64,000 bases of DNA, from assembly GCA_046351255.1 (NCBI GenBank), contig JAXLYU010000009.1, forward strand, positions 293,975 to 357,974. The letters are read 5' to 3'. The notes under the pieces were generated by a model. That model saw only the letters and a list, made by a program, of their open reading frames with translations. It was not told the DNA's origin and searched no databases. Source of the stretch: Labilithrix sp. Its GTDB lineage: Bacteria > Myxococcota_A > Polyangia > Polyangiales > Polyangiaceae. Positions 313 through 18,894 of this stretch are shown here, in pieces (positions within the stretch are counted from its first letter, which is position 1; every line of letters begins with the position of its first letter). Made by a program: the position numbers and the translations under genes.

Positions 313-1491
313 ATGCGTCGCTTCGAGCTCGTGGACGGCACGTCATCGAAATTCTGGGAGATCGACGTGGAGGGCAAGTCCACGACCGTTCGCTTCGGAA
401 AGATCGGGACGAACGGCCAGACCCAGACGAAGTCCTTCCCCACCGAGGCCAAGGCCCTCGCCGAGCGCGACAAGCTCGTTCGCGAGAAGACGGGCAAGGG
501 GTACGTCGAGAAGACGGGGACGGCGGCCGCTGCGCCCCTGGCCGCTCCGGCCGCCGCGCCCGCCGCGCCCGCCCCGAAGAAGAAGGCGGCCGCGAAGAAG
601 CCGCCAGCGGAGGCACCTCCGCCAGCGGCGGCCGGCTGGGTCCCCGCGGAGGACGGCTATGCGCTCGCGCTCCGGGACGGAAAGATCGTCGCGCGCAGCC
701 CGAAGGGCCAGGAGCTCTCGTCGGTCCCGAAGGACCTGAAGGCAGGCGCCGCGTACGGCGAGCTCGAGAACGTGAAGGAGTGGCTCCTCGCGCACGAGAA
801 GGAGTGCCTCGCCGAGGTCGAGACGTGGATGCTGCGCTCGCTCCCCACGCCGCGCGCGGTGCTCGCCGCCGTCTTCGAGGACGAGGCCTGGCGGAAGGCG
901 CTCGAGAACGCGGTCGTCGTTCCCGGCGGCGACGCGGAGGCGGGGCTCTTTCGCGGCGTCGATCCGGAGAAGGGGATCGGCCTGGTGACCCTCGACGGCG
1001 AGACGCGATGGACGCGCGCGGAGACGATCATGATCCCGCATCCCGTGCGCGTCCCCGAGCTCGACGACTTCCGGTCGCTCTCCGCCGAGCTCGGGCTCGT
1101 GCAGGGGATGAGCCAGCTCTTTCGCGAGACGTTCGCGCCGCCCGCGAGCCTCGACGCGTCGGCCACGACCGTGGGCGACTTCAAGAACGGGAAATTCCAG
1201 ATGCTCCAGCACGCGCTCGGCGTCGCGCGCAAGCACGGGTTCCGCGTCTCGGGCGGCAACGTCCTCTGCCGCGTGTGGCAGGAGGGGAAGGTGTTCGAGG
1301 CGCGCTACTGGATCGGCTCCGAGGACCCGACCATCGAGACGTACACGGACGACCTCCTCTGGGTCGACGAGAAGGAGCGGCCGATGAAGATCGCAGACGT
1401 GCACCCGGTCGCGTACTCGGAGGGCATGCGCATGGCGAGCCTCGTCTACGCCGCGCGCGTGATCGAGAAGACGGAAGAGGTGGCCTCGTGA
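313..1491 (+). CDS. WGR-domain protein (MolR-like N-terminus, 392 aa)
   Basis: N-terminus [44 protein letters not shown] closely matches the WGR domain consensus (W-G-R motif, here F-G-K-I-G). A Lys/Ala/Pro-rich linker and a C-terminal region of about 250 aa with unknown function follow. The stop overlaps the start of the next gene (GTGA at 1488-1491). Confidence 0.8.
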
Positions 1492-4400
1492 GCGGCCTCG
1501 AGGCGAGCGCGGTCGTCCGCGCGGGCGGCATCGTCCCCACGGACGCGAAGGTCAGCACCGACGTGCGCGTGGGCGAGGTGGCCGCGCGCCGCTACGCGCA
1601 TCCGGCGCTCCCGGGCCGCACGATCGTACGGATCATCCCGGATGTGATGGCGCCCGGCGCGGACGTGGAGATGGAGACGCTCGGCTTCGCGCGTGGTGAG
1701 GTGAGCGGCAAGCTGGGGAAGGGGCGCTTCCGGTCCCTCGGGTTCCCGGGCTGGGCGCTCGTCCACGACCCGGCGCGCGCGAAGTTCGCGCTCGAGGTCA
1801 TGAAGGACTTCAAGCGCGCCGCGAAGCAGGTGAAGAGCAAGCCCGGCAACGCGCGCGACGCGTTCGTCGAGATCGGAAAGCTCCTCGCCCGCTCCGTACC
1901 TCACTTCCTCCCCTCGTTCTGGGAAGAGGCGGGCCGGCGCTTCGTGGCGGAGGACTCCACCACCTTCGCGGCGCAGGCCTTCGAGAAGGCGCGGCAGGCC
2001 GAGAAGGAGCACGCGCTCCCCGTGGACGAGGACGTGCGCAGCGCCGTCTACCTCGAGTTCGCGCTCGCGGGCGCGATCGCCGCGAAGTCGCTCGCGGGCT
2101 ATGCGAAGGAGCTCGAGGAAGCGTACGGCGCAGAGGCCGCGTACCCGCGCTACCTCGAGCTCGCGACCCGGCGCGTCCTCGGCGGAATGCCGCCGTGGAC
2201 CGGGCTGGCGAAGGAGCTCCGCGCCCTCGCGAAGAGCGCCAAGAAGGACGTCGCCGCGGAGGACGACGCGTTCCTCGCCGCGATCCTCGACGCGCCCGCG
2301 ATCTCGCGCGCGCCTGGCGAGCTTTGGACCACGTACGAGCCCGCGATCGCGCGGCTCGCGAAGCGGTCGCCCGCGGTCCGGCGCCGGCTCCGCCACCTCT
2401 ACCCGGAGCCGTCGTCCCGCGCGAAGGACTTCGGCACGTGGTGGTTCGATCTGCTCGTGCGCACCGGCTCGCTCGAGGGCCTGTGGGACGAGAGCGTCGA
2501 TGCGGCGGAGGCGGAGGCGCCGGGCGCCACCGCCGAGTGGCTCGGAAAGGCGATCCGCTTCACGAAGGGTGCGCCGGCCCTCTTCGACCTCCTGCCGAAG
2601 CTCCTGCCGCGCCTCGTCCGCGAGGCGAAGCCGGTCGCGGTGCTATGCGCGACGGCGCGGCGGCAGGGCATCTCCCTCGACTTCGCCGAGACGCTGCTCG
2701 CCGCGGGAGCGCCGATCGCGGAGCCGCCGCGCTGGTGCAGCATCGATCTGGCGGAGCCGTTCACGTGCGATCCCGTCCACGTCGAGGCCGACGCCGTGCT
2801 CGGGCCGCGCCTGCTCCTCGCCATAGAGGACGTGCTCGGTACCCCCGAGTTCGAGGCCCGATCCTCGGGGAAGAAAGGCCTCGCGCGGGTGCGTCGCGCC
2901 TGGCTCGAGCGAGAGGTGGGGCGCCTCGAAGGGCGCTGCCTCGTCGAGCTCGGCTACGCCTGCGCGCGTCTGCAAGCGAAGGTGCGCCCGACGCTCTGGG
3001 CGGAGCACCCCGACCTCGTCCAGCGCGTGCAGGGCACCGACGTGGTGCCCGCGCTCACGCGCACGCTCCGCGGCGGCGTCTTCGCGGAGTGGACGTGGCC
3101 GGTCTACGAGGAGCTCGTGGCGCGCGAGAAGGTCGAGCTCAAGCTCGACGGCGCGTGGCCGTTCCCGGTCTTCCGGACCGCGACGAAGGGCTTCGTGCTC
3201 GGCGCGGACCGCATCCTCCTCGAGCACGACTTCGTCCTGCCTCCGAAGGCGTCCGTGCATCGCTGCGTCTTCATCGAAGGGGACCTCCTCGTCACGCTCT
3301 CCATCGTCGGCTCCACGATGCGAGCGTACTGGGCGTCGAGCCCGAACGATCTCTTCGACCTCGAGGGCTACCTCTACTGGCGCGATCTCCCGACGTCGGT
3401 CGCGGCCCCCGGCGGCGGCGTCTCGCTCGGCGAGCGCGCGATTCACCGCGGCGATCGCGTCATCAAGATCGGTAACGGGCTCGTCAGCGACGGCGAGACG
3501 CTCTGGACCTCCGGCTACGAGGACGGGCGCATGAAGCTGTTCGAGCTCGACCCGAAGACGGGCGCGAAGGGGCGTGCGTCCTGGCCGGCCTTCGTGCAGG
3601 CCGCCGCGAGCACGTCCGACGACACGTCCCGCTTGCACGCGGTCTCGCTCGCCCCCGCGCCGGAAGGCGTCACCGCGTCGCCGCTCGGTCAGAAGGACGG
3701 GCTCCTCGGCGTCTACGTCCGCGGGCCCGCCCTGCACGCCACCGGCGCGCGCGAGGTGGTGCGGATCGACGGCCTCCGATGGACCGGCACGGGGACCCAG
3801 GCGCCGTCCGCGCTCGCGACCTGGCCCGGCGACCCGGCCCCGCGCGCTGTCTTCCAGCGGCGCCAGCTCCGCGTGGACGGAGGCTACGGCACCCCCGAGC
3901 TCCATCTCGAGGACCCTGCCGGCGCCATCTTCGCCGCGCTCGGCCCCGAGACCCCGTACCGCGCCGGCTGGACCGCGCTGCCTCATCTCTCGCTGTGGTG
4001 CTACCTCCGCCCGCGCGACGAAGCGGCGAGCCGCGCCCTCCGCGCGATCTCCGACGCGACGGCGAAGGCCCTCCTCGAGGGCGACGTCCTCACCGTGCTC
4101 CCCGAGGTGAAGGCGAAGGCGCTCGCGGAAGGGATCGCGGCCATCGCCGCGCAGGCGGTCGCCTTCCGCGCGGACCTCGCCAAGCTCGCGGCCTCGACCA
4201 CCTCCGAGGCGAGCGCGGCGCCTGCCGCCAGCGCCACGACGGTCGAGGACTCGGAGCTCGCGGCCGCGCTCGGGCCTCTCATCGAGATGCGCCGCTGGTC
4301 GAGCTCGCAGGTCACCGACGAGATCGCCGCCATCTCGGACGCGGTCCGGGGCAAGGGCACGCGCTCGTTCTCCGAGAGCTGGGCACCGTGGGATCGGCTC

Positions 4401-6242
4401 GTCGGGCGCCTCCGCGGCGTCGCGCTCTTCGCGATGCTGCCGGGCACCTCGGCGGAGCATCGGGCCACCATCGCGGCGCTCCTCGAGGCGTTCGCGCCCA
4501 CGGTGTTCGTCGATCCGGCGTACCGCATCCGCTGGTTCGCGGGAAAGATGACCAGCGCCTCTCCCGCGCGTCCAGGGACGGCGCACACGTGGATCGCGGA
4601 GAGCGGAGGGAGCACGTACGTCTTCCGCGACCTGAACGCGATCGTGCCGACCGCCACCGAGTGGGACATCCAGGCGCTCGAGCTGCGCGCGGACGACGCC
4701 TTCGTCCCGCCGCCCGGCGTGACGATCCGCGAGGAGCGGAAGATCGTTCACGATGGCGACGCCGCCTTCCTCGCGGGCTTCGCCGAGATCGCGCGGCAAG
4801 CGCTGCCGGCCTGGGATAACGGCGCCGCCGACGCGTTCGCGGCCGAGGCGGGCGTCACCCGCGCAGAGGCGACGCTCGTGCTCGCTGGGATGCCGAACAT
4901 GCAGACATACGCGGCAGACTTCCTCGGGAAGGAGCTTCGCGAGAAGCTGGGGCTGAAGACCTCGGACGCGAAGATGGCGCGCGAGTCCCTCCAGGGCCTC
5001 CCGAAGTCGAAGCTCCTCGACGTCTACGCCCTCGCCGCGCCGGCCGACGCGCGCGATCTCGTCCGCCCCTGGTCCGAGAGCGGGCTCGCGCTCCGGCTCG
5101 GTCGCGCGTTCGGCGAGGTGTTCGGCGCGCGCGTGGCGCTGCGCGAGGAGATCGTCACGGCGTGCGAGCGCGAGCTCGACCCGCCGCTCGCCTCGACGAC
5201 GCTCCTCGCGGCCGTCGCGTCGAGCGGCGAGCCTTCCTTCTTCAGGCGCCCGGAGCCGACCTTCGACGCCGCCTTCAAGTGGCAGCAGAAGCCGCCGAGC
5301 GATGTCCTCTCTCCCGCCGCGCTCACGTCGCTCGTGGGGCTCGTCTCGTGGCTCTACCTCGCGCTGCCGAGCGGCGATCCCTACCGTGACGCGGTCCCGC
5401 GCCTCGCGACCGCGATCGATCAGCTCCTCGACGATCCCAAGCTCGTGCTCCCGCTCCGGTTCCTCCAGGGCACCGACGCGGCCGCCGTGCGCTCCCTCGT
5501 CGACCTCGTGCGCGGCGACCCTGCGCCCGTGACGCTGAACAACGACCCCGCGCTCCATGCGGTCGACAGCGGCGCGATCGCGGTCGGCACGTTCCGCGAG
5601 GGGACGACGGCGGGCTTCCTCTTCCGACCCGCGAAGGTCCGGCCCGAGGATCCGATCGGCCGCGCCATCGCCTCGTCGAACCTGCCGAGCTGGGGCATCG
5701 GGACGGGGATGGCCTGGAACGCGGTCGCGCTCCTCCGCTCGCGCGGTCTCCGCGCCATCGTCGCGCGGATCGCGAGCGGCGGGCTCCCCAAAGGCGCGTA
5801 CGAGGCGAATCCCTCCGTCTCGATGCCGGCGCTCGTCGGCGCCGTCGCCAAGGCGAAGAAGCTCTCCGAGGAGGCGGCGTGCCACTACCTCCAGCTCCTC
5901 GGGCTCCTCGAGCCGACGGCGAAGGCGGTCCAGACCTGGAACGGCTGGAAACCTGCACAATACAAGAAAACCTGCGAGGAGCTCCTCGCGAAGAAGCTCG
6001 TCGTCGCGGGCAAGCGCGAGCGCGCCGGACGAGAGGTCTTCCTCCCGGGGGCGTGGGAGAAGGGGCGGGAAAAGAACCTCCCCACCGAGGGCTGGAAGAA
6101 GGCGCTCTACGACGAGCGGGTCGAGGGCGGCGCGCTCGTCGTCCTGCCGCGCACGTTGCCGCTGCGGCCGCTCCCCGAGATCTGGACCGACGCCTGGAAG
6201 CGGATCGAAGCGGGCGACATCCCGAAGCTGGAAGAGGTCTGA
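1488..6242 (+). CDS. Giant hypothetical protein (about 1584 aa), candidate YehI/MolR-body-like (DUF4132-type?) partner of the MoxR-VWA cassette
   Basis: Continuous ORF in frame with the 276..6242 ORF. I take the GTG at 1488, which overlaps the WGR stop, as the start; an ATG at 1654 is an alternative. Composition is protein-like (not Arg-rich garbage) and the gene has the same frame economy and orientation as its neighbours. I recognise no catalytic motif. The family call rests on gene-neighbourhood analogy only. Confidence 0.6.
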
Positions 6243-6243
6243 G

Positions 6244-7416
6244 ATGGCGAAGAAGATCGAAGCGCCCGAGGCCGAGCAGGCGGCGCCGGCGGAGACCATC
6301 TGGGCCGAGGAGCTCGCCTTCCTGCGCCAGTGGGACGACGCCCCGCGACCGCCGGGCTGGCTCCTCTCTCCGCGCGCCGTCGTCACGTTCGTGATGGGCT
6401 CGAAGGACGAGAAGCTCGCGCTCCCGAAGACGGCGAAGACCGAGGGCCCGCGCACGCTCGCGATCACGGAGAAGTTCGTCGGCGAGCGCGCCATCGTCGA
6501 GCGCTCCGTGGTCACGCTCGCCGGCGAGCGTGGCCTCCTCCTCGTGGGCGAGCCAGGCACGGCGAAGTCGATGCTGAGCGAGCTCCTCGCCGCCGCCGTG
6601 TGTGGGACGAGCGCCCTCACGGTGCAGGGGACGGCGGGGACGACCGAGGACCAGCTCCGCTACGGATGGAACTATGCCCTGTTGCTCGCGAAGGGGCCTT
6701 CGCGCGAGGCGATGGTCCCTTCGCCGGTCCTCTCCGCGATGCGACGTGGCAGCATCGCGCGCGTGGAAGAGGTGACGCGCTGCCTCCCCGAGGTGCAAGA
6801 CGCCCTCGTCTCCATCCTCTCCGATCGGCGCATCGCCGTGCCGGAGCTCGCCGACGTCGCGGACGAGGCGCACGTCGAGCCGGCGCGGCCCGGCTTCAAC
6901 CTCATCGCCACCGCGAACCTCCGGGACCGCGGCGTGTCGGAGATGAGCGCGGCCTTGAAGCGTCGCTTCAACTTCGAGACGGTGCCGCCGATCCCGGATC
7001 TCGCGCGCGAGGTTCACCTCGTGAAGCGTCAGGCGACGACCATGCTCGCTCGCACGGGGGCGCCGATGAAGGTCGATGACGCCGTGCTCGAGGTGCTCGT
7101 CACCGCCTTCCGCGATCTGCGCGCAGGGCGATCGAAGGAGGGCTGGGCGGTGGAGAAGCCGAGCACCGTCATGAGCACCGCGGAGGCGGTGGGGGTGGCG
7201 GGCGCGATCGGTCTCCAGACCGCGTATTTCGCGAGCGATCGCGATCCGCTCACGCTCGTCCCCGGCTACCTCCTCGGCGTCGTGCTGAAGGACGATCCGA
7301 AGGATCGCGCACGGCTCCTCTCGTACTGGGACTCGGCCGTGAAGCGGCGCGCGGAGGACAAGCAGCGCGTCTGGCAGCAGCTCCTCGAGCTCCGCTCGGT
7401 GCTCGAGGAGGTCTGA
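6244..7416 (+). CDS. MoxR-family AAA+ ATPase (YehL-like)
   Basis: Walker A is LLLVGEPGTAKS. The Walker B region is GSIARVEEV. The MoxR-typical segments PEVQDALVSILSDRRIAV, GFNLIATAN and AALKRRF (Arg finger) are present. The ATG lies 1 nt after the upstream stop. Confidence 0.85.
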   Translation: MAKKIEAPEAEQAAPAETIWAEELAFLRQWDDAPRPPGWLLSPRAVVTFVMGSKDEKLALPKTAKTEGPRTLAITEKFVGERAIVERSVVTLAGERGLLLVGEPGTAKSMLSELLAAAVCGTSALTVQGTAGTTEDQLRYGWNYALLLAKGPSREAMVPSPVLSAMRRGSIARVEEVTRCLPEVQDALVSILSDRRIAVPELADVADEAHVEPARPGFNLIATANLRDRGVSEMSAALKRRFNFETVPPIPDLAREVHLVKRQATTMLARTGAPMKVDDAVLEVLVTAFRDLRAGRSKEGWAVEKPSTVMSTAEAVGVAGAIGLQTAYFASDRDPLTLVPGYLLGVVLKDDPKDRARLLSYWDSAVKRRAEDKQRVWQQLLELRSVLEEV

Positions 7417-7418
7417 GC

Positions 7419-10400
7419 GTGGAGCCCGCGTCGGCCGTCTCTCTGCTCGCGGGGAGCGTGGCGCCGTTCGTCATTGGCGTGCGCCACCACTCGCCCGCGT
7501 GCGCCGCCGCGATGCCCGTGCTCCTCGACGCGTTCGCGCCCGATCGCGTCCTCGTCGAGCTGCCGGCCGATCTCGATCCGTGGCTGCGGTGGCTCGCGCA
7601 TCCCGACACGAAGGCGCCGATCGCGCTTGCCGCCGCGAGCGAGGACGGCCGCCACCTGTCCTTCTATCCGTTCGCCGACTTCTCGCCCGAGCTCGCCGCC
7701 ATTCGCTGGGCCGCCGCGCACGGCGTGCCCGTCGAGGCCTTCGATCTGCCCGCCGGTGCGCGCGAGGGACGCCGTGCATCTCGCGCGACGCGCGCGGAGA
7801 GGGACTCGCTCGTCCGGCGGCTCTCGGAGGCCCACGACGCCGACGACGTCGAGTCGCTCTGGGATCGCATGGTCGAGGCGCGCGCGGTGAGCGGCGCGGA
7901 GGAGGCGACGCGTCGCGCCGCCCTCCTCTTCGGCTGGGCGCTCCGCGTCGACGAGCACGCCGCGGGCGGCGTCTCCGTCGAGGACCTCCGCCGCGAGGCG
8001 TACATGCGCCGGGCGCTCGCGAGGGCGAAGGGCCGTGTCGCCGCCGTCGTGGGCGCGTTCCACGGGGGCGCGCTCCTCGACGCGCCGATCCCGGCGCCGG
8101 TGCCGCCCGCGGACGAGGTGGTCCCGCGCCACGTGGTCTCCTCGCTCGTCCCGTATGCGTTCCCGCTCCTCGACTCGCGCTCCGGCTATCCGGCGGGCAT
8201 CCGCGATCCGATCTGGCAGCAGCGCGCGTACGAGGCGCTCGCCGCGGGGGGCGAGACCAGCGCGATCGTGGCGACCACGATGACGGAGATCGCGCGCGTC
8301 GTGCGCCGCCGTGGCCACGTGGCGTCGTTCGCGGACGTGAAGGAGGCGACGCGCCTCGCGCGCGACCTCGCGACCTTGCGTGCGCTGCCGGGGCCGGGAC
8401 GGCGCGAGCTCATCGAGAGCATCGAGAGCGCGATGCTGCAGGGCGAGCGGCTCGGGCGGGGGCGCATCGTGGCGCGCGCGCTCGAGGAGGTGCTCGTCGG
8501 TCAGGCGCGCGGGACCCTGCCGCGCGACGTGCCGCGCTCCGGGCTCGCGCCCCATGTGATCGCGCTCCTCGCGGAGGACGCGCTCCCGGGCCCGCCGGGG
8601 GAGGGCGCCTCGAAGGAGACGGTGCTCGATCCGCTCCGCTCGCACCTCGATCGGCGCCGGCAGCGGACGCTCGTCCGGCTCCGCACCGCGGGGATCCACT
8701 ACGCGGAGGAGGACGAAGATCGCGCCGGCGCCGGTGGCGGGGAGGCGCTCACGACGAGCTGGTCGATCCGCTGGAGCCCCACCACGGAGGCGACGATCGA
8801 GATCGCGAGCCTCCTCGGGGTGACGCTCGCACAGGCCGCGCGCGGCGCGCTCCTTCGCGACGTCGAGCGCGCGAAGGCCGAAGATCGCTGGGGCGCGGCC
8901 GCGCTCCTCGCCCACGTGCGCGCCGCCGCCGCGTGCGGCCTCGGCGAGCTCGTCACGGAGGGCCTCGCGCGCTTCGCGGACGAGGAGCTCGCCCACGCCG
9001 GTCTCTCGGAGGTGACCGCGCTCTCCGCGCTCGTCGACCGCCTCCTCCGCGGACACGTCTCGGCGCTGCCGGTGGAGCCGACGCCCGGCTTCGACTCGTT
9101 CGTCTTGCCGCCGAGCCTCCGCCGCGACGACGTCGCGCAGGCGCTCGTCCGCGCCGTCGAGGGCCTCGCCGGATCGACGCGCCTCGAGGACGCGCGCGCG
9201 CTTCTCGTCGTGGTCGAGCACCAGCTTCGTGAGCGTGATGCAGACGCGGACGACACCGCAGCGCGGAGTCGCGAGCCGTCCGAGATCCATCCTTTCGCCG
9301 ATGGCCGCATCGGCTTCGCGCTCGACACGCTCGCCCGTGACGGATCGCCGTTGATGCAGGGCGCGGGCGGCGCGGCCCGCGTCCTCCTCGGGCGCGAGGA
9401 CGCGGAGACGTTCGGCGTGCGTGTCGGCTCTTTCGTCGACGCGGGCGGGCCCGATCTCGCCGATCGCATGAAGGGCGCGCTGGTCCTCGGCCTGCCGCTG
9501 TTCGAGGCGCATCCCGGCTTCGCGGAGCGCCTCCTCGACCGACTCGAGGCGGTGGATGACCGCACGTTCCTCGAGCGCTTGCCTGCGCTCCGCGGCGGCT
9601 TCGCGGTGCTCGCGCCGGCCGCGCGAGAGCGCCTCCTCGCGGCGCTCGCGCCGAGGCTCGGCGACGGGCTCGGCGATCTCGAGAAGGCGCTCGAGCTCGC
9701 GAGCGGGCCCGAGCTCGCGGCCCGCGCGGCGCGAGCGGATGACGCCGCACGCGCCGCCGTCGCCGCGCTCGGCCTCGCTCTCCCACCGGCTCCCGCGCCT
9801 CGGTCCGCGCCGGGTCCACGCCCGCGCCGGAGCGCTCCTGGCTCGGCGATCTCGCTCGCGGATCGGATCCGGCTCGCGCTCGGGCGCGAGAACGAGAAGC
9901 TCGCGCCGCGCTCGCTCCCCTACGCCATCGCGCTCGACGAGCTCTACGGCCGCGGGCGAGGCGAGGGCTCGCGCCAGCTCGGCCCGCGCGGCGGCAAGGA
10001 CGCGCCGTTCCCGACGGTGCGCGAGTGGGCGGAGGAGCTCGAGGCGCTCTTCGGCGCAGCCGTGCGCGAGGAGATCCTCGGCGAGGCGGCGGGCGCGGGT
10101 CGACCCGCGGCCGCGCTCATGCTGGACCCCGACGTGGTGCGCCCCTCCGTCGAGCTCCTCGAGCAGGTGCTCTCGCTGAAGGGCGGCCTCGCGGAGCGCG
10201 ACCTCCATCGCCTGCGGGCCCTCGTGCAGCGCATCGTCGACGCGCTCGTCGAGGCCCTCGCGGTACGGGTCCGTCCCGCGCTCACGGGCCTCGTCACGGC
10301 GGCGCCCACGCGCCGCGCGATCGGACCGCTGGATCTGCGGCGAACCGTGCTCGCGAACCTGCGCACCGCGCGTCGCGCGGACGATGGCTCCGTCGCGATC

Positions 10401-10940
10401 GTCGCGGAGCGCCTCTTCTTCCGGCAACGCGCGAAGCGATCGCTCGACTGGCGCATCGTCCTCGTCGTCGACGTGTCCGGGTCGATGGAGGCATCCGTCA
10501 TCTACAGCGCGATCATGGCCGCGATCCTGAGCGCGCTCCCCGCGATCACGGTTCATTTCGTCGCGTTCAATACGACGGTGATGGATCTCTCCGAGCGCGT
10601 CGACGATCCGCTCGGCCTCCTGCTCGAGATCTCCGTCGGCGGCGGCACCGACATCGGACGAGGTCTTCGCTACGCGCGCGGCCTCGTGAAGGTGCCGCAG
10701 CGCACGATCGTCGTCGTGGTCTCGGACTTCGAGGAGGGGGCCTCGGTGCCCGCGCTCGTGGCGGAGGTGCAGGCCCTCGCGGAGAGCGGCGTCCGCGTGC
10801 TCGGCCTCGCCGCCCTCGATGATCGTGGTGCGCCGCGCTACCACGCGGGCGTCGCGAAGCGCATCGCGGACGCGGGCGCCTCCGTCGCCGCGCTCACTCC
10901 ACTCGAGCTCTGCCGCTGGGTCGGAGAGCAGATCCGCTGA
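7419..10940 (+). CDS. Large protein with a C-terminal von Willebrand factor A (VWA/MIDAS) domain and an N-terminal uncharacterised region (DUF5682-like; YehM+YehP-like fusion)
   Basis: The C-terminus carries a complete MIDAS: LVVDVSGSM (DxSxS), GGGTDIGRGL (Thr) and VVVVSDFEEG (Asp). The N-terminal roughly 900 aa are Ala/Leu/Arg-rich with no motif I can name. The GTG start is 2 nt after the MoxR stop. Confidence 0.8.
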   Translation: MEPASAVSLLAGSVAPFVIGVRHHSPACAAAMPVLLDAFAPDRVLVELPADLDPWLRWLAHPDTKAPIALAAASEDGRHLSFYPFADFSPELAAIRWAAAHGVPVEAFDLPAGAREGRRASRATRAERDSLVRRLSEAHDADDVESLWDRMVEARAVSGAEEATRRAALLFGWALRVDEHAAGGVSVEDLRREAYMRRALARAKGRVAAVVGAFHGGALLDAPIPAPVPPADEVVPRHVVSSLVPYAFPLLDSRSGYPAGIRDPIWQQRAYEALAAGGETSAIVATTMTEIARVVRRRGHVASFADVKEATRLARDLATLRALPGPGRRELIESIESAMLQGERLGRGRIVARALEEVLVGQARGTLPRDVPRSGLAPHVIALLAEDALPGPPGEGASKETVLDPLRSHLDRRRQRTLVRLRTAGIHYAEEDEDRAGAGGGEALTTSWSIRWSPTTEATIEIASLLGVTLAQAARGALLRDVERAKAEDRWGAAALLAHVRAAAACGLGELVTEGLARFADEELAHAGLSEVTALSALVDRLLRGHVSALPVEPTPGFDSFVLPPSLRRDDVAQALVRAVEGLAGSTRLEDARALLVVVEHQLRERDADADDTAARSREPSEIHPFADGRIGFALDTLARDGSPLMQGAGGAARVLLGREDAETFGVRVGSFVDAGGPDLADRMKGALVLGLPLFEAHPGFAERLLDRLEAVDDRTFLERLPALRGGFAVLAPAARERLLAALAPRLGDGLGDLEKALELASGPELAARAARADDAARAAVAALGLALPPAPAPRSAPGPRPRRSAPGSAISLADRIRLALGRENEKLAPRSLPYAIALDELYGRGRGEGSRQLGPRGGKDAPFPTVREWAEELEALFGAAVREEILGEAAGAGRPAAALMLDPDVVRPSVELLEQVLSLKGGLAERDLHRLRALVQRIVDALVEALAVRVRPALTGLVTAAPTRRAIGPLDLRRTVLANLRTARRADDGSVAIVAERLFFRQRAKRSLDWRIVLVVDVSGSMEASVIYSAIMAAILSALPAITVHFVAFNTTVMDLSERVDDPLGLLLEISVGGGTDIGRGLRYARGLVKVPQRTIVVVVSDFEEGASVPALVAEVQALAESGVRVLGLAALDDRGAPRYHAGVAKRIADAGASVAALTPLELCRWVGEQIR

Positions 10941-12648
10941 TGCTCCGCGCGGCGCCCACGCTCCTGTCGGCCCTCGCCGCGGCGGCGCCCGCGCGCGTCG
11001 TGAAGAAGCTCGACGCGGACCGCGAGGTCGCGCGGAGCTGGACGTGGATGGTCGGCCCCGACGGCGGCACGGTCGCGATCGCGGGCGGTGAGACGGTGAC
11101 CGTCCGCGCGAGCGACGGGCTCGTCACCGAGCCGACGGCGTTCACGTGCTCGTGTCTCCTCACGCCGCGCTGCTTTCACGTGCTCGGCGGTCGCGGCGGC
11201 GCTCGAGGTCTCGCTCGACGACGCGCCGGCGCCGGCCGCGGCCGCGCCCGCCCCCAGCGCCGGCGACCGCGGTCGCCGTGGACGCCTCGCGGCGCGCGGT
11301 GGCGGAGCGCGCGCGCGCCGTGACGTCGGACGTTCTCGCCGCTGGCGCGCGTGGCGTGGGCACGATCCTCGAGGGCGAGCTCCTCCGCGTGGTCCACCTC
11401 GCGCGCGTGGCCGGGCTTCATCGGCTCGCGGCGGCTGGCCTGCGCGTGGCGCGCGACGTGCGCGATCTCGCGTCCGAGGCGGACGACTTCGACGCGAACG
11501 CGCTCGTCGAGGATCTCCGCGAGCTCTCGGTCACCGCACAGCTCTTGAGCCGCGACGAGGTCACGCCCGACGTCATCGGCGTCGCGCGCCGGGCGTACGA
11601 GCGGATCGGTCACCTCCGTCTCGTCGGCCTCGCCTCCGAGCCCGTCGTGGCGGGGCGAGGCTACGGCGGCGTCGTCACGCACGTCATCGCGGACGACGGC
11701 ACGCTCTACTCCATCAGCGACGTGATGCCTGGCGGCGAGGCGCGCGCCCGCGGCGCCTACGACGGCTCTCTCGTGATGGGCGACACGACGATCACGCATC
11801 GTGCCCTCTCGCGTGGCGGCCTCTTCGTCCAGGACGCGACCTCCTCCGAGGATCATCGCCTCGGCGCGGGCAAGGACGTGAAGGCGGTCCGCGCCGCGAA
11901 CGAGGCGGGCTGGGCGGCGCCCGCGATCCGCGCGCGCTTCGAGGAGCCGCTCGCCGCGCAGCTCGCCCGCGCCTACGACGCGCTCGGGATCCCGGCCACG
12001 CGACGCTCGCGCGGCGCGACCCTCGTCTTCCTCCGCGGTCACGTCGTCGGACACGACGCCTCCGCGCTGCTCGTCGCGGGCGAGGGCGGCCCTGTGCGGC
12101 TCATCGCGCCTCCATCGCACGGGACGCTCTTCACATTCGAGAACATCCGCCAGCTCTCGAGCGCGGAGGGGCTCGGGCTCGAGGTCCTCGCCGATCTCGT
12201 CCCCGACGCGCCGCGCACGCTCGCGCTCGTGGCCTTCGGGCCATGGGCGAAGGACGCCGCGCCCGTACGCCTCGTCCTCCCGCCCGAGTGGCGCGGCGTG
12301 GTGAACGCCGGCTATGACGTCATCCAGGGCTCGCACCTCGAGGGCCGCGCGTCGCGCTCCGCGGCCGCGGCTCCGCCCGCGGAGGCCGTCTTCGATCCGC
12401 TCTCGCCGCTGCGTCGCCGCATCGTACGCGTCGCGCTCCTCGGCACTCGGAGCCTCCCGCCGGAGGCGACGGCAGAGATCGATGCCGATCGCGTCGCCCT
12501 CGGGCGCCTCTTCATGTTCGGCGCGGTCGAGGTCCTCGGCGCGCTCTCCGCGGGCGCCCGCCGGCGCGGAGAGCTTCGGGACGCCTGGCTCGCGGCCGCG
12601 ACCTACGCGCATGCGGCGAGCATCGCCCTCTGGCGTGACGCCTGGTGA
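10940..12648 (+). CDS. SWIM zinc-finger protein (YehQ-like); reading frame disrupted around 11160-11290 (frameshifted or pseudogene, or sequence error)
   Basis: The start ATG overlaps the upstream stop (TGATG). The N-terminal ORF 10940-11323 contains FTCSCLLTPRCFHV, a CxCx5CxH SWIM motif. It then runs into an Arg/Gly low-complexity stretch and a stop. The long protein-like ORF 11146-12648, in the +2 frame, carries the rest (..VAVDASRRAVAERARAVTSDVLAAG.. through ..IALWRDAW). The third frame would read CFHVLAVAAALEV, which is a more canonical continuation after the SWIM motif. Confidence 0.6.
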
Positions 12649-12658
12649 GAGTACATCG

Positions 12659-14143
12659 GTGAGTCCATGGCATGATGCTCTCGTGCCAGCTCCTGCCTCG
12701 CCGTCACCTCCGCTCGTCGCGGCCCTCGATGCGCTCTTCGGTCGTAGCCCCGACGCCGTCGTGCTGCTCGGCGCCGGAGGGGAGACGCTCTATCGAAACG
12801 ATGCCGCCGGAGCCGATCCGTGGGCGGCCGGGCGGAGCGAGGTCGATGCCGCGCTGCCCTCCGTGCTCGCGGGTGAGGCGGTGCAGCTCGAGGCCGGGGA
12901 CACCGGACCGAGCGGCGTCCGTAGCTGGTACGCGTGCACGTTGTCGCCGGTGAGCGAAGGCGGCGCCGTCGTCGGCGTGCTCGCGGTGTCGAAGGACCTC
13001 ACCGCGCTCAAGCGATCGGAGGCGCGCCTTCGCCGGAGCGAGCAGCTCTTGGTCGACACGCAAGGCGTCGCCCATCTCGGCACGTGGGAGTGGGACATCA
13101 GCGAGCCGCACGCGGTGTGGTCGGCGGAGCTCTATCGCATCTATGGGCTCACGCCCGAGTCGTACACGCCGAGCTACGAGGCCTACCTCACGAAGATCCA
13201 CCCCGACGATCGCGAGCGCGTCATGGAGGCGACCAACCGAGTCTTCGAGGAGCACGTCCCGTACTCGCACGACGAGCGGATCTTCCGGCCGGACGGCTCG
13301 CTGCGGTACCTGCATACCTGGGCGTTCCCCGTGCTCGACGAGGCCGGCCAGCTCCGCAAGCTCGTCGGAGTCTGTCAGGACATCACGGATCGGAAGGTGG
13401 CGGAGGAGGAGGTCCATCGCCTCAACGAGAGCCTCGAGCTGCGCGTCGCCGAGCGGACGCGTACCATCGAGCGGTCGCTGAAGGACCTCGAGGCGTTCCA
13501 GGCGATGGTGAGCCACGACCTCCGCGCGCCGCTCTCCGTGATCTCCGGGAGCTGCGGCCTCCTCGAGCAGGAGCGAGGACACCTCCCCGCGACCGCCTCG
13601 AAGAACGTCGAGCGCATCCAGCGCGCGGTCTCGCAGATGACGCGGCTCGTGAACGATCTGTTGACCCTGGCGCACGTGGGCAACTCGCCGCTCGAGATGG
13701 CCGAGATCGATCTCTCGGCGCTCTGCGACGACATCGTCGCGAACCTCCGGCAGAGCTCCACCTCCGTCTCGCCGGCGGTGGTGTCAATCGAGCCGGGCCT
13801 GAAGTGTCGTGGCGACGCGGCGTTCGTCCGGACGATCCTCGAGAATCTCCTCGGCAACGCGTGGAAGTACTCCTCGCGTGTTCCGGCCCCTCGCATCGAG
13901 GTCGGCGCCAGGCCCCACGAGGACGAGGTCGCCTTCTACGTGAAGGACAACGGCGTCGGCTTCGACATGAAGGACGCGGATCGGATCTTCGCGCCGTTCG
14001 AGCGCCTGCATCGGGCGACCGAGTTCGCGGGGACGGGCGTCGGCCTCGCCGCCGTGCATCGCATCGTCGAGCGCCACGGCGGGCGCATCTGGGTCGACAG
14101 CGCCCCCGGGCAGGGCGCGTCGTTCTCGTTCACGCTCGCGTGA
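12659..14143 (+). CDS. PAS-domain sensor histidine kinase (cytoplasmic)
   Basis: PAS-like region (WEWDISEPHAVWSAELYRIYG..IHPDDRERV). H-box is MVSHDLRAPL. N-box is LLGNAWKYS. G1 is KDNGVGFD and G2 is GTGVGLAAV. The GTG at 12659 is in frame and no receiver domain is present. Confidence 0.8.
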   Translation: MSPWHDALVPAPASPSPPLVAALDALFGRSPDAVVLLGAGGETLYRNDAAGADPWAAGRSEVDAALPSVLAGEAVQLEAGDTGPSGVRSWYACTLSPVSEGGAVVGVLAVSKDLTALKRSEARLRRSEQLLVDTQGVAHLGTWEWDISEPHAVWSAELYRIYGLTPESYTPSYEAYLTKIHPDDRERVMEATNRVFEEHVPYSHDERIFRPDGSLRYLHTWAFPVLDEAGQLRKLVGVCQDITDRKVAEEEVHRLNESLELRVAERTRTIERSLKDLEAFQAMVSHDLRAPLSVISGSCGLLEQERGHLPATASKNVERIQRAVSQMTRLVNDLLTLAHVGNSPLEMAEIDLSALCDDIVANLRQSSTSVSPAVVSIEPGLKCRGDAAFVRTILENLLGNAWKYSSRVPAPRIEVGARPHEDEVAFYVKDNGVGFDMKDADRIFAPFERLHRATEFAGTGVGLAAVHRIVERHGGRIWVDSAPGQGASFSFTLA

Positions 14144-14250
14144 GCGTTGCAGCGTCGTGGATCGGCGCCCGCATCGTGGACCGGCGTTCGGCACGGCGAG
14201 AAGTCTTGCTCGAAGCACGCAAAATCGAGGCGCCGAGCTAGCATGGCGCG

Positions 14251-15717
14251 GTGAATCAGCATCGAGTGTGGGGAATCGCGATCGTGGCCGCTTCGGGCGC
14301 GCTTGGCTGTGCGGAGACGTATACGCCGCGGCCAGCGGCGGGCTTCGCGGCGAACGCAGGGCCGCTCACGTCGGCCTATGCCGCCGCCGAGACGCATGCG
14401 GACCCCGAGGCGGGGCGCGCGGGCACGCCGCTGCCGCCGAAGGCGGTCGAGCTGTTCGGCGCCGAGACGGTGCGCGCGGGCTCTCCGCCGGGTCCCACCA
14501 TGAACCTCGAAGAGATCGTGCGGCTCGCGGTGCTCCGCGATCCGGCGATCCGCGCGGCGTTGGCGGACGTCGAAGCGGCGAAGGCCGACGTGGTGCGCTC
14601 GCGCACGCTGCCGAACCCGACCGTCCTTGCCACCCAGTCGCTCGTGCCGTTCCCCGGGCGGCCGTTCACGGAGGAGAAGACGGGAGGTCCGCCGCAGCTC
14701 GACGTCATCCTCGGCTATGCCCTCGATCGCATCGTCTTCGGCAAGCGCGGCGCGGCGGTCGCGCGGGACAAGCTCGCGGTCGACGCCGCGAGCGCGGCGC
14801 ACGCGGATCGTATCCGCACGCGCGTCGCCGAGGCGGTGACGGCGTACGTCGACGTCCTGCAGACGCGAGCGCTCTGGGTCCTGGCGACCGAGGTCTACGG
14901 TCACGCTCGCCGTCTGCAAGCGGTGACGAACGCGCGCAACGGCGACACGGCGGCGGCCGAGCTCGGACGCGTCCGGATCTACCACCTCACGACGCACCGC
15001 GCGGTGATGCACACGGCGGCCGATCTCGACAGCGCCCGTGCGCGCCTCCGCGAGCGCCTCGCGCTGCAGCCCGACGAGCCGACCCCGGAGCCGGCCGGCT
15101 TTCCCATCGTCGATCATCCCGCGCCGCCGCCGTCGGAGGAAGAGGCGATCCGCGAGGCGTTCGCGGCCCGGCCCGATCTCGAGGGGAGCCGCCGCGACGC
15201 CGAGCGCGCGCGTTCGGCGGTGGTCTCGGAGAAGCGCGAGGGCCTACCCGTCCTCGGCGTGGTCGGCATCGTCTCGCATCAGTTCCAGTCGCAGGCGCTC
15301 GGCGCGCCGAACGTGTGGTCCTACGGCTTCGGCCTCTTCGGCACGCTCCCGGTGCTCGATCGCAACCAGGGCGGCATCGCGCGCGCTCGTGCGACGGTGA
15401 CGCTCGCCGACGCGAACCAGTCCTCCACCGCGCTGCGCGTGGAGTCCGAGGTGCGCACCGCTCTTGCGGAGTACCGCGCGGCGTATCAAGCCATCATCGA
15501 GGGCAACGAGGGCCTCCTGCGCGGCGCGGCCGAGATGCGCTCCGGCATCCGCGACGCCTACGCGGCGGGCGCGAAGAGCCTCGTCGAGGTGCTCGACGCC
15601 GAGCAAGCCTTCTCCGACGCCATGCGCCTCGAGATCGAGGAGGAGGCCGGCTACATCCGCGCGTACCACCTCCTCAACGCCGCGGTCGGCCGCGCCATCC
15701 TCTCGAGCGAGCCCTGA
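14251..15717 (+). CDS. TolC-family outer-membrane efflux protein (outer membrane factor lipoprotein)
   Basis: The signal peptide ends at LGCAE (lipobox). The two-repeat coiled-coil/beta-barrel architecture of OMF proteins is present (..LTLEEAVRLAL-like NLEEIVRLAVLRDPAIRAA..; ..GAKSLVEVLDAEQA..YHLLNAAVGRA). Confidence 0.75.
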   Translation: MNQHRVWGIAIVAASGALGCAETYTPRPAAGFAANAGPLTSAYAAAETHADPEAGRAGTPLPPKAVELFGAETVRAGSPPGPTMNLEEIVRLAVLRDPAIRAALADVEAAKADVVRSRTLPNPTVLATQSLVPFPGRPFTEEKTGGPPQLDVILGYALDRIVFGKRGAAVARDKLAVDAASAAHADRIRTRVAEAVTAYVDVLQTRALWVLATEVYGHARRLQAVTNARNGDTAAAELGRVRIYHLTTHRAVMHTAADLDSARARLRERLALQPDEPTPEPAGFPIVDHPAPPPSEEEAIREAFAARPDLEGSRRDAERARSAVVSEKREGLPVLGVVGIVSHQFQSQALGAPNVWSYGFGLFGTLPVLDRNQGGIARARATVTLADANQSSTALRVESEVRTALAEYRAAYQAIIEGNEGLLRGAAEMRSGIRDAYAAGAKSLVEVLDAEQAFSDAMRLEIEEEAGYIRAYHLLNAAVGRAILSSEP

Positions 15718-16140: not shown

Positions 16141-18894
16141 TTAGCGGCGCCTGGCCGTCTCTTTCCGCCTCGGGTCGTCGAACCAGGTACGCGCGGCGAG
16201 GGCGCTCGCGGCGGCGCGCTCGAGGAGGCTCGACGCCTCTGCCCGTGTGGCCACGTGGCCTCGCGCGAGCTCGTTCGTGAGCCAGCCGGTGCCCTCCGGA
16301 TGACACTCGAGCGCGGCGATGAGCTCCGGCGCTGCGTCGAACGGGCTCCGGAGCCTCAGCGTGAGGCGGCGGCGACCATCGGCGCTGCCGTGGTCGACCC
16401 CGACGCCGAGCGCCTGGAGCCTCGTGGTCTCGTCGAGCCCGAGCTCGGCCAGCGCGGCTCCGAGCGTGGCGTCTGCGAGCTCACGCCAGCGATAGCCGTG
16501 CGTCTCCTCCATGATGTCGGCGACCATCCGGTGGACGACGCGCGTGAGCGCCTGGTGCTCGGCGAGGGTGGGCGCGACGAGCGGGTCGGCGTGAAGGCCC
16601 ACGAGTCGCCGCTTCGAGCCGGTCCCCACCTCGCGAAAGAAGATGCCGGCGAGCGCCGGCTCGCCCGGGAGATGCTTCTGCCAGCGCGGGAGCGTGAGCC
16701 GCTCCGTCCATTCCCCATCGAGGAGCACCGCGTAGGCACCGGAGTGCCACCACAAGCCGAACGGATTGACGGTCGCGCGGTCCTGAGCCTCGAACCCACG
16801 GGCGCCGCCGACCAGCGGGCGAGGCTCGATCTCGATGGTGACGCGCCGGAGGCGCTCGACGCGATCCTCGATCAACGCGATCGCCCAGTCGAGGGCGCCT
16901 GCGAGCGCTTCGCGCCCTAGCTCGAGGGCAAGGTGATCGTGACCGTGGGAACCGAGCGTGACCTGGCTCTCCGTGCCGTCGGCATGGAGGGTGATGCGCT
17001 TGTCCGCCCTGGTCATGGCCTCGGCCTTCGTGACCGGGTCCGGCACGAGCGGGCGTTGCTGGTTGCCGTGGCCGAGCGAGTAGTAATCGAACGTGATGCC
17101 GAGCTTCGATACGTGACGGACGACGCGTCCGATCTCTTCCGGCAAGTGGAGATTCGCGCCGTCCATGCCCAGCGAGAGCAGCGCGACGACCTCGGGTTTC
17201 GTCTTCCTGGCAGGCGCGTCCTCCGACGGCGCGTCGAGCGGGGGATCCACCGTCGCGCCCGGGAAGCGGGCGAGCGCCGCGCGGAGACGCGGCTGCTCGG
17301 AGGGGCGAAGCTTGGTTCGCTTCGGGTCCATCGCGATGACGTCGAGGCTCGCCGGCGGAAACGACTCGAGGAGGTGGACGATGTCGCCATACGTGGCTCG
17401 TACCGCGAGCCGGCGGAAGGGACCGACCGGCTCGGTGCGCTCGACGCGATAGACCACCTCTGCGCCGGCCAGGCGATCCGCCCAGCGATCGGGCCTCACC
17501 TCGATCGTCTTCGGGCCGGGCACGCTCGCCAGGTCTGCGAAGACCTTGTGGACGTCGATCTGACCGTCCGTGTTCCTCAACATGAGCCGCTCGATCCGTC
17601 GAACGATGGGCCACGACGGCAGGGACGCGACGGCGCTCGCGTGCCAGCGCGTGCAGGCGACGCCGAGCGTCTTCAGCGCGGGAAGCGCGGTGGTCGCGGC
17701 GAAAGGATGCCTGGCGTCGAGCGCCAGCGCACCGTCTCGCAGGACCTCCACGATCTCGAGGCGCTCGAGCTTACGGAGCGCGCCGCTCTCGAGCACGGGC
17801 AGGACGTCGTCGGCGCCGATGTTGGTGAGCTCGCGGAGGCCCGGGAGGCGGGTCAGGAAGGCGAAGCCCACCGAGCGGTCCCAGGGCTCGGGCCACTCGA
17901 GATCGATCGCGCGTACGTGCGACCACGCGGGATGCTCGACCTCCGGATTCTCCCGGCGCTCGAGCTGGCCGCCCGCGAAGAACCCCTCCTCGTAGCGCCG
18001 CGTTCCACGCTTGAAGTGCCGTGCGACCGGCCAGTCCCAGCCCGTGTGGTCGTCGGCGATCTTCTCCGTGAGCGCGCGCTCGCGGCGCTCCACCTCCTTC
18101 ACCAGGCCCGCGGCCGCGGCGCGTCGCGCGATGCCGAGCGTGATGAGCTCGCCGCGCGGGTCGCCGTTCTCGGTGAGCCAGTCGGCGAACACGGTCTTGG
18201 CCGTGGTGTCCGACGGGTCGGCGTAGATGGCCTCGAGGAACTCGGCCGCCGTCGTCTTCGTCGCGGTCTCGGCGCGAGCCGTGCCCGCGAAGCGCGCCTC
18301 GAGCGCCGCGACGCGCGCCTCCGCGTCCGGCTCGAGCTGCTCGATGCGCTCGAGCTTCGCGAGGATGTCGGGCAGCTCTTCGCGCATCGCACGAGCGCGA
18401 TCGTAGAGGCGCGCGAGGTCGGTGACCTTCTCCTGCACGACCACGCGCGAGCGAGGATCTTCGAGCAGGACGAGATGGCGGAGCATCTGGAGCTGGAGAC
18501 CATGAGACGCCTGGCTCTCGTACGGTGGATCGGTGAACGTGCGGATGAGGAGCGCGGCCACGCGTGGGTCGGGCCCCCACGACGCGATCCGGTCGAACCG
18601 TACTCTCCCATCACGCCACTGCTTGGGCCATGGGTCGGCGAGGAGACGCTCGACGTCGACGAGGTCGTGGTCCTTCTCCGCCTCGAGCCATGCGGCGAGC
18701 CGGAGCTTCACCGTCTTTCCGGCGATCGCCGTGCGTCCGGCGGCCGCGAGCGACGAGATCCGCGCCGCCACGCTCGCGATCCGCGGGTGACGCTGCGCCT
18801 GCCATGCGGCGATGACCTCGGCGAGCGCCGCGGTCGCGTCGTCGCGATCGAGGGCGGCGGCGGCAGAGTCGAGTCGCTGGACGAGCGGCGCCAT
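16141..18894 (-). CDS. Large hypothetical protein (917 aa) carrying a TIGR02996-type motif; possible C-terminal metallophosphoesterase-like segment
   Basis: The motif TVFADWLTENGDPRGELITLGIARR matches the WLxExGDPRGEfI signature of the myxobacterial/planctomycete TIGR02996 repeat-companion domain. The C-terminal half has His-rich motifs (SLGHGNQQ, LGSHGHDHL) reminiscent of the GNHE/GHxH motifs of calcineurin-like phosphoesterases, a weak match. The overlapping plus-strand ORF 16933-18912 is Arg-rich garbage. Confidence 0.6.
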   Translation of the reverse strand: MAPLVQRLDSAAAALDRDDATAALAEVIAAWQAQRHPRIASVAARISSLAAAGRTAIAGKTVKLRLAAWLEAEKDHDLVDVERLLADPWPKQWRDGRVRFDRIASWGPDPRVAALLIRTFTDPPYESQASHGLQLQMLRHLVLLEDPRSRVVVQEKVTDLARLYDRARAMREELPDILAKLERIEQLEPDAEARVAALEARFAGTARAETATKTTAAEFLEAIYADPSDTTAKTVFADWLTENGDPRGELITLGIARRAAAAGLVKEVERRERALTEKIADDHTGWDWPVARHFKRGTRRYEEGFFAGGQLERRENPEVEHPAWSHVRAIDLEWPEPWDRSVGFAFLTRLPGLRELTNIGADDVLPVLESGALRKLERLEIVEVLRDGALALDARHPFAATTALPALKTLGVACTRWHASAVASLPSWPIVRRIERLMLRNTDGQIDVHKVFADLASVPGPKTIEVRPDRWADRLAGAEVVYRVERTEPVGPFRRLAVRATYGDIVHLLESFPPASLDVIAMDPKRTKLRPSEQPRLRAALARFPGATVDPPLDAPSEDAPARKTKPEVVALLSLGMDGANLHLPEEIGRVVRHVSKLGITFDYYSLGHGNQQRPLVPDPVTKAEAMTRADKRITLHADGTESQVTLGSHGHDHLALELGREALAGALDWAIALIEDRVERLRRVTIEIEPRPLVGGARGFEAQDRATVNPFGLWWHSGAYAVLLDGEWTERLTLPRWQKHLPGEPALAGIFFREVGTGSKRRLVGLHADPLVAPTLAEHQALTRVVHRMVADIMEETHGYRWRELADATLGAALAELGLDETTRLQALGVGVDHGSADGRRRLTLRLRSPFDAAPELIAALECHPEGTGWLTNELARGHVATRAEASSLLERAAASALAARTWFDDPRRKETARRR

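Follow-up and report, generated by a model that had tools for sequence, protein, structure and literature searches.

The stretch of DNA analysed here (the window) comprises 64,000 nucleotides (nt) of a contig from Labilithrix sp. (JAXLYU010000009.1, positions 293,975 to 357,974 of the forward strand; assembly GCA_046351255.1). It carries a five-gene cassette related in layout to the yeh cluster of Escherichia coli, and the second gene of this cassette encodes a protein of 1584 amino acids (aa), referred to below as the giant protein. We see an even chance that this protein is a non-catalytic hub or client that is remodelled, probably on nucleic acid, by a MoxR-VWA motor within a five-gene Yeh-type module. 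An earlier reading of the letters alone (the original prediction) had regarded it as the substrate or scaffold of the MoxR-VWA pair. This is still the most economical interpretation, because the giant gene is an obligate neighbour of that pair; gene order, translational coupling and natural fusions with DUF4132 point the same way, as does a C-terminal tail motif whose occurrence goes with that of the ATPase and VWA genes. MoxR-VWA pairs with a large partner are known, as is the yeh cluster; what is new is an unnamed family of giant proteins and a separate variant of the yeh arrangement.

The giant gene belongs to a conserved Yeh-type cassette

The cassette consists, in this order, of genes for a DUF4132 protein, the giant protein, a YehL-type ATPase, a DUF5682-VWA fusion protein and a SWIM zinc-finger protein (Table 1), and at every junction the genes overlap or lie 1-2 nt apart. 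The ATPase and DUF5682-VWA genes follow the giant gene directly, as expected from the original prediction that it is embedded in a MoxR-VWA operon, and the giant protein, with 1584 aa, is indeed larger than any other cassette product (the next has 1173 aa). Along its full length (378 aa aligned) the ATPase shares 50% identity with E. coli YehL, and both have the unusual Walker B 'EE'; YehL is one of seven recognised MoxR subfamilies (PMC3893208). The closest solved sequence relatives of the ATPase are the AAA modules of Midasin. In BLASTP comparisons the DUF5682-VWA fusion showed 28% identity to YehM and 38% to YehP, and the MIDAS motif of its VWA domain (aa ~947-1173), DVSGS (DxSxS), is intact. 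The WGR domain of the DUF4132 partner is 40% identical to that of YehF.

The neighbourhood of the giant gene was recorded in 79 species loci, of which 72 had a sufficient upstream flank and 52 formed the basis of the downstream counts. In 70 of the 72 loci the gene immediately upstream encodes DUF4132, and a WGR domain was detectable in only 7 of the loci in the census. Directly downstream the ATPase gene is present in 41 of the 52, followed by DUF5682, VWA and SWIM in 40 of the 52. Furthermore, in four database proteins of ~2010-2030 aa (P0050, P0080, P0098 and P0112) DUF4132 is fused N-terminally to the giant protein. Adjacency, translational coupling and occasional fusion make the DUF4132 and giant genes a conserved two-gene unit, which is usually attached to Yeh-type ATPase, VWA and SWIM genes. 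In eleven satellite loci no ATPase, DUF5682-VWA or SWIM gene adjoins this unit (L018, L024, L025, L026, L030, L034, L036, L040, L042, L048 and L053). Ten of these consist of DUF4132 and the giant gene only and one (L053) is without detectable DUF4132; in L040 an ATPase match occurs ~5 kb downstream. At least three satellites share a genome with a full cassette (L018 with L033, L024 with L012 and L048 with L037).

The SWIM gene of the window is split over two frames, the part with the CSCLLTPRCFH motif lying in the frame of 10940 and the rest, from ~11326, in the frame of 11146. In the related loci L001, L002, L006 and L008 it is a single intact open reading frame (ORF) of 569-585 aa; the two relatives compared with Pfam scored 21.5 and 17.7 against the SWIM gathering threshold of 19.6, one of them above it. 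The split reflects either a real pseudogene or insertion-deletion errors in the G/C-rich stretch near 11185-11256. BLASTP gave no match to E. coli YehQ itself.

A C-terminal tail motif mostly accompanies the ATPase and VWA genes

In full cassettes the giant protein ends in the motif GDxP[KR][YFL][ED]E[VL] followed by 0-9 residues, represented in the window by the aromatic/acidic tail PKLEEV. The motif was found in 52 of the 60 cassettes classed as full and in 3 of the 11 satellite copies without an adjacent ATPase gene, a comparison that is indicative only, as the satellites may form one clade. Eight of the 11 satellite copies end directly after GDxP. One explanation considered for 'EEV' was that it merely results from the Shine-Dalgarno signal of the gene that follows. 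This was rejected as the sole cause: in Actinobacteria 6-9 codons separate the motif from the stop, and it is the last codons (RGRR) that hold the purine-rich stretch, so that a ribosome-binding site alone cannot explain the tail. An acidic, exposed C-terminal peptide would be the type of ligand that is bound by a VWA MIDAS site or by an AAA+ pore.

The giant protein is predicted to be a multi-domain protein

Two AlphaFold2 models, each built from an alignment of 49 sequences, were used, and domains were delimited by DSSP and fold search. This structure prediction, which had been proposed as a check by the original prediction, gave two confident models with a predicted local distance difference test score (pLDDT) of about 90: aa 1-850 reached a pLDDT of 89.8 and a predicted template modelling score (pTM) of 0.76, and aa 830-1584 a pLDDT of 90.7 and a pTM of 0.83. 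Combined, they contain 45% helix and 17% strand, which makes the earlier description of the protein as largely helical half right. Likewise, of its description as rich in Ala, Leu and Glu the first two hold (16% Ala, 11% Leu), whereas Gly, Arg and Val all come before Glu.

The predicted domains succeed each other along the whole protein (Table 1). The small N-terminal cap is directly followed by the near-invariant motif LGFPGWAL (aa 84-91), and H38, R48, E61, R80, R82, G85, F86, P87 and W89 are conserved in this region. The start of the TPR-like solenoid that comes next (aa ~81-280) is the best-conserved stretch of the giant protein. Behind the solenoid a beta-propeller-like domain is predicted, for which the number of blades is suggested by the strand groups in the DSSP assignment. 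The helical connector includes a segment of lower confidence and poor conservation (aa ~900-920), and beyond a five-stranded beta module the second helical domain carries a conserved block starting with TGLTxxEAxLLxAG (aa ~1121-1160). Near the C-terminus we place a candidate winged helix-turn-helix of three helices and a beta-hairpin wing (KRERAGR), with K1509, R1510, R1512 and R1515 conserved; the modelled three-helix bundle and wing are superposable on solved winged-helix domains. Of four Trp-containing blocks that had been thought to look conserved, WTWPVYEEL (W537, P538, E541) and the block of W1487 and L1499 do hold conserved residues, whereas YLYWRDLP and one block of 11 residues are without conservation. 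No enzyme-like fold was seen in the two models, and on their evidence the giant protein looks like a non-enzymatic, multi-domain protein.

A stand-alone protein of 664 aa, encoded on a plasmid of Streptomyces sp. NBC_01166 (L086 6483-8477), is the counterpart of the C-terminal portion of the giant protein and aligns to its residues ~940-1580 (hhalign E=2e-59). As it matches this part alone, the giant protein is at least bipartite. The gene for the 664-aa protein lies outside any cassette, beside a MarR gene and an IS30 transposase, and its product is without the acidic tail.

The giant gene is genuine and defines an unnamed family

The giant ORF is a genuine, conserved coding gene. It was found exactly where the original prediction had placed it, with a GTG start at 1488 inside a GTGA that overlaps the TGA of the upstream gene and with its own TGA at 6240-6242. 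The G+C fraction at codon positions 1, 2 and 3 is 0.72, 0.52 and 0.94, and that at the third position (GC3) stays between 0.88 and 0.97 across all 300-nt blocks, in a window of ~72% G+C as a whole. Doubts that the original prediction had itself raised, over a GC3 or codon profile at odds with coding and over a lack of homologues outside this genome, are dispelled by this strongly coding profile (GC3 0.94) and by full-length homologues in at least 584 species genomes. The giant gene was also compared with that of a 97.4%-identical contig from activated sludge (L004). Third positions hold 78 of the 124 base differences, and 72 codon differences are synonymous and 42 amino-acid changing. Since the synonymous differences outnumber the replacing ones, the gene is real and under purifying selection. 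An antisense ORF at 2643..6620 (minus strand) has the wrong GC pattern and was discarded as a high-GC artefact, as were the many long ORFs in other frames.

A homologue search covering 5.8 billion proteins yielded at least 438 relatives. The nearest relatives of the window are metagenome bins of Polyangiales and other Myxococcota. The best 120 were inspected: they are mostly full-length (1530-1670 aa) and are labelled 'hypothetical' or unnamed, a Pfam domain being present only in four longer, fused members. At a 50% identity level the full-length homologues fall into ~600 clusters. A phmmer search with residues 1-330 as query retrieved 609 proteins from 1.84 billion cluster representatives, 515 of them at E<=1e-10; among the 150 matches listed, the region lies at or near the N-terminus or behind DUF4132 in a fusion. 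Judged by these 609 representatives, the N-terminal region appears to be confined to its own family. In a census with one genome per species, the loci (in at least 584 species genomes) belong mainly to Myxococcota, Planctomycetota and Actinomycetota. The actinobacterial hosts include Streptomyces, Micromonospora, Dactylosporangium, Saccharothrix, Actinosynnema and Catellatospora; further hosts are Acidimicrobiales, Bradymonadia and a single Selenomonadaceae bin. The giant protein is also carried by 12 PLSDB records, mostly Streptomyces megaplasmids. No copy was found in the phage records and IMG/VR contigs searched.

The original prediction had seen no known motif in the giant protein, in agreement with sequence searches of Pfam, NCBIfam, PADLOC and the PDB, all of which came back empty. 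Against the first three the giant protein had no match even at E<=10, and 29 diverse family members gave nothing consistent. A profile of the whole family found no sequence relative among PDB chains, and one made from the last 100 residues returned nothing or noise. No CobN/Mg-chelatase domain was found in the giant protein. The homologue on a plasmid of Streptomyces sp. NBC_00984 (L085 8986-13905) bears the RefSeq name 'DNA-binding protein', which is not traceable to any NCBIfam or Pfam model; the SWIM gene there is called 'hypothetical protein'. The family is unnamed in any database.

Relation to the E. coli yeh cluster

In E. coli K-12 the cluster comprises yehF (WGR), yehH/molR (a pseudogene), yehI, yehK and yehLMPQ. 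The cassette of the window has the same accessory domains in the same order (WGR, DUF4132, YehL, YehM, YehP and a putative YehQ-type SWIM domain), and in E. coli, as in the actinobacterial relatives of the cassette, a damage-type signal lies upstream of the first gene (see below). The two differ in that E. coli has no homologue of the giant protein and its DUF4132 proteins are giants instead (YehI has 1210 aa), whereas in the window the DUF4132 protein is short, YehM and YehP are fused and an extra giant gene is inserted between DUF4132 and the ATPase.

The original prediction had gone further and equated the giant protein with the YehI/MolR body, naming a search with the Pfam DUF4132 profile as a check. 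This equation was not borne out. DUF4132 (PF13569) did not match the giant protein at E<=10 or any of the 29 diverse members, BLASTP showed no match to the Yeh proteins, and hhalign gave the family profile a probability of 0.1% against YehI and 0.2% against a 15-member YehI-family profile (0.1-0.3% over YehI, YehQ and this profile). No solved relative of YehI was found in the PDB. The fusion order is reversed as well: in the natural fusions DUF4132 comes first and the giant protein second, whereas in YehI the body comes first and DUF4132 last. By sequence comparison, the giant protein falls outside the YehI/MolR family. Nevertheless, it may supply in trans what the long bodies of YehI and MolR supply in cis.

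Damage-type signals upstream of related cassettes

In Deinococcus radiodurans, depletion of DdrO strongly derepresses the drA0165-drA0166 operon, in which DRA0166 carries DUF4132, and the WGR gene dr2173, and E. coli MolR has been described as a member of the LexA regulon (PMC8533742). Because of these reports, damage promoters were searched for upstream of the cassettes. The consensus of PafBC promoters is tGTCgg(N10)tA(N3)T, made up of a -26 element and a -10 element (PMC8635444). A strict motif, TGTC[AG]GT-N8-10-TA-N3-T, occurred 11 times in 1.6 Mb of loci, and 8 of the 11 sites, all of them in Actinomycetota, are found on the coding strand 60-115 nt ahead of the DUF4132 match (e.g. TGTCAGTGGCAGCTTCTAGAGT). 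Of the 26 actinobacterial loci with upstream sequence, 25 have a single match to the relaxed form GTC-N12-TA-N3-T, at -57 to -113; with 35 matches in 1.16 Mb of these loci on both strands, ~0.2 matches were expected. Examples among loci L051-L085 are L064 9095-9116, L078 5037-5058 and L085 8016-8037. The spacers vary between genera and the key positions are kept; the site of the Streptomyces cassettes can be written TGTCAGTGG-N7-TAGAGT. This pattern implies that the cassettes of Actinomycetota are probably induced by DNA damage.

Across the E. coli yeh region the strict SOS box CTGT-N8-ACAG had no match. The looser CTG-N10-CAG revealed an SOS-box-like sequence with an AT-rich core, AACTGGATAAAATTACAGGG, 10 nt upstream of the start of yehF (L003 1447-1466). 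Its position before yehF, the WGR gene, agrees with the literature that places molR in the LexA regulon. From these motifs and the published regulon data, three different damage-response circuits appear to control Yeh-type cassettes in three phyla.

Two Myxococcota relatives have a palindrome, GACGAA-N6-TTCGTC, ~10 nt before the start of the WGR-DUF4132 gene (L006, ~8795-8815; L007, ~8798-8818), which was not seen in the window.

Proposed role and alternatives

Previous work on MoxR-vWA systems describes a mechanism in which a peptide is captured and ATP-driven remodelling follows (PMC7159879, PMC3893208). By analogy, the DUF4132-giant unit would in most genomes be served by a ring of the YehL-type MoxR AAA+ protein and by the DUF5682-VWA protein as adaptor. 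The giant protein would offer interaction surfaces, through its TPR-like solenoid and beta-propeller, together with its C-terminal winged helix. The conserved C-terminal tail P[KR][YF]EE[VL] is the candidate for an acidic client peptide that the MIDAS site of the VWA domain may capture, and ATP hydrolysis could then remodel, load or release the complex. The complex might act on DNA, or sense it, in genotoxic stress; a DNA-directed role is suggested because of the nucleic-acid-type modules in the cassette (winged helix, WGR and SWIM) and of the damage signals upstream of related cassettes. No effector domain was detectable in the cassette proteins. The same general composition, an AAA_5 ring and a MIDAS VWA adaptor beside a large client, is found in Midasin/Rea1, CbbQ-CbbO, NorQ-NorD, RavA-ViaA and CoxD-CoxE. 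Unlike the clients of these pairs, the giant protein is not an enzyme complex of known function and shows neither metal-cluster nor Rubisco-like features; a further difference is the 900-aa DUF5682 domain on the VWA protein of the window. In the chelatase triads (BchI/BchD/BchH and CobS/CobT/CobN) an AAA+ and a VWA protein likewise act with a giant third subunit, of ~1300-1500 aa; the combination of AAA+, VWA and a giant third protein is alike by analogy only.

A more specific form of the proposal, which we put forward tentatively and hold to be rather doubtful, is that DUF4132 and the giant protein form a damage-induced nucleoprotein module that is loaded onto DNA or stripped from it by the YehL-MoxR/VWA/SWIM motor, and that the unrelated regulators PafBC (Actinobacteria), LexA (E. 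coli) and DdrO (Deinococcus) have captured the cassettes independently. Several observations weigh against a remodelled, non-catalytic hub acting on nucleic acid in the window. The damage-type motifs belong to relatives, and none was found ahead of the window's own cassette. Upstream of all 50 non-actinobacterial cassettes searched, the PafBC-like motif and shared 8-mers were absent, and the upstream region of the window's own cassette and of nine related loci showed no shared motif by eye. The frameshift in the SWIM gene may mean that the window's copy of the system is defective, or may reflect sequence errors. Furthermore, the giant protein could have a cryptic active site in a new fold, which is discussed below and which we consider most improbable.

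It would be compatible with the hub or client role if the giant protein were the sensor, or third component, of a 'ternary' MoxR-vWA anti-phage or abortive system, a possibility that we judge unlikely. In such a system the TPR and propeller domains would recognise a molecule of the invader, with the ATPase-VWA pair serving as a threshold switch. The paradigm of MoxR-vWA conflict systems has been published (PMC7159879), and modules such as TPR and propeller domains are typical of sensors. The ternary systems of Kaur, Burroughs, Iyer and Aravind (2020) share with the cassette a MoxR and vWA core with a large third protein, an enrichment in Actinobacteria, Planctomycetes and Deltaproteobacteria/Myxococcota and the occurrence of paralogues within a genome. 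The spread of the giant family over Myxococcota, Planctomycetota and Actinomycetota is patchy and includes Streptomyces megaplasmids, some genomes hold paralogous satellite copies, and damage promoters also drive some defence genes. However, the cassette is without VMAP, iSTAND, FtsH, a vWA-fused propeller or an effector domain in any of its proteins: the propeller is predicted in the giant protein and the VWA protein carries DUF5682, so that the defining fusion is missing. The window's ATPase is of the YehL subfamily, and DUF4132, WGR and SWIM are foreign to those systems; SWIM, WGR and YehL are not mentioned in the published account (PMC7159879). Four of the five cassette proteins scanned had no match in PADLOC-DB 2.0 and the fifth, the WGR partner, matched only weakly a candidate model (WGR_XIII, 1e-05); the ATPase reached 23.2 bits against bpMoxR, over 49 residues only, with a cut-off of 27. 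The ordinary chromosomal genes that flank the cassette and the absence of copies from the phage records and viral contigs searched also speak against a conflict system.

The likeness to the yeh cluster allows a different interpretation, namely that the giant protein is the long N-terminal body of YehI/MolR split off as a gene of its own, the cassette then being a yeh cluster with another gene split. The same partners surround the giant gene (WGR, DUF4132 and YehL-, YehM-, YehP- and YehQ-type), fusions of DUF4132 to the giant protein exist, and the DUF4132 proteins beside the giant family are short (~290-410 aa), compared with the 1210 aa of YehI, in which DUF4132 occupies residues 954-1138 and ~950 residues are unassigned. 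In view of the lack of a BLASTP match to the Yeh proteins, the hhalign probabilities given above and the opposite fusion order, we regard this origin as improbable. There is hardly more than a slim chance that the giant protein is enzymatically active, for instance on DNA, through a cryptic active site in a new fold, with the MoxR-VWA pair as its maturation chaperone. MoxR-VWA pairs classically mature or activate large enzymes, CoxD/E, NorQ/D and the chelatases being precedents (PMC3893208, PMC7159879). Moreover, the first 230 aa of the giant protein hold a series of near-invariant polar residues (H38, R48, E61, R80, R82, K118, S143, E146, E147, R150, R169, E172, E190, K200, Y205 and R229). 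The two models, in which no enzyme-like fold was seen, favour the hub or client.

The yeh/molR cluster has stood in the E. coli annotation for decades without a function, and literature searches on DUF4132, DUF5682, YehL and the combination of MoxR, SWIM and WGR found no functional study. The cassette of the window is a variant of it that is widespread (at least 584 species of Myxococcota, Planctomycetota and Actinomycetota, cultured Streptomyces included, for example S. murinus NRRL B-2286 and S. litchfieldiae DSM 44938), and the confident models provide its giant family with a domain map. The main interest lies in this map and in the testable link to DNA damage, more than in the lack of motifs: in Streptomyces such a link could show what the whole Yeh-type family does. 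Should the damage-induced nucleoprotein module outlined above prove real, bacteria would have an unrecognised, widespread arm of their DNA-damage response, or else a defence triggered by damage, with a Midasin/MoxR-type ATPase at its centre.

Feature coordinates and flanking genes

Table 1. Coordinates in the window of the cassette genes and of the predicted domains of the giant protein.
Feature	Position	Strand	Basis
Partner gene, WGR + DUF4132, 392 aa	313..1491	+	Pfam WGR 1.6e-19, DUF4132 4.3e-19
Giant protein gene, 1584 aa (unnamed family, no sequence-family match)	1488..6242	+	ORF, GC3, homologue and divergence data
Small N-terminal alpha/beta cap, aa 1-85	1488..1742	+	DSSP of model
TPR-like alpha-solenoid, aa 88-546	1749..3125	+	Predicted model
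Beta-propeller-like domain, aa 552-820	3141..3947	+	DSSP: five groups of four strands
Helical connector, aa 834-1010	3987..4517	+	Model and conservation
Five-stranded beta module, aa 1013-1086, poorly conserved	4524..4745	+	DSSP and conservation
Helical domain, aa 1092-1314	4761..5429	+	Model and conservation
Small beta module, aa 1321-1379	5448..5624	+	Model
Candidate winged helix-turn-helix, aa 1447-1518	5826..6041	+	Model
Aromatic/acidic tail PKLEEV, aa 1579-1584	6222..6239	+	Family motif
YehL-subfamily MoxR AAA+ ATPase, 390 aa	6244..7416	+	Pfam AAA_5 4.6e-39
DUF5682 + VWA_CoxE fusion, 1173 aa	7419..10940	+	Pfam DUF5682 1e-145, VWA_CoxE 4e-54
Putative YehQ-type SWIM zinc-finger gene, split over two frames	10940..12648	+	CSCLLTPRCFH motif

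The flanks (12314-15717 and 16141-30661) are ordinary chromosomal sequence without an obvious defence island. They encode a PAS histidine kinase, an outer-membrane efflux protein, a hybrid histidine kinase, glucose-6-phosphate dehydrogenase, an alpha/beta hydrolase, a protein with an FGE-sulfatase domain and a Ser/Thr kinase. A lipoprotein-like gene upstream was considered as a member of the cassette and dismissed, as it is not conserved with it. The 64-nt gap at 249-312, before the first cassette gene, contains the overlapping G5/C5 inverted repeats GGGGGTTGCTTGCACTAGCCCCC and CCCCCGGCCGATACGACGGGGG, which are kept in the 97%-identical contig L004.

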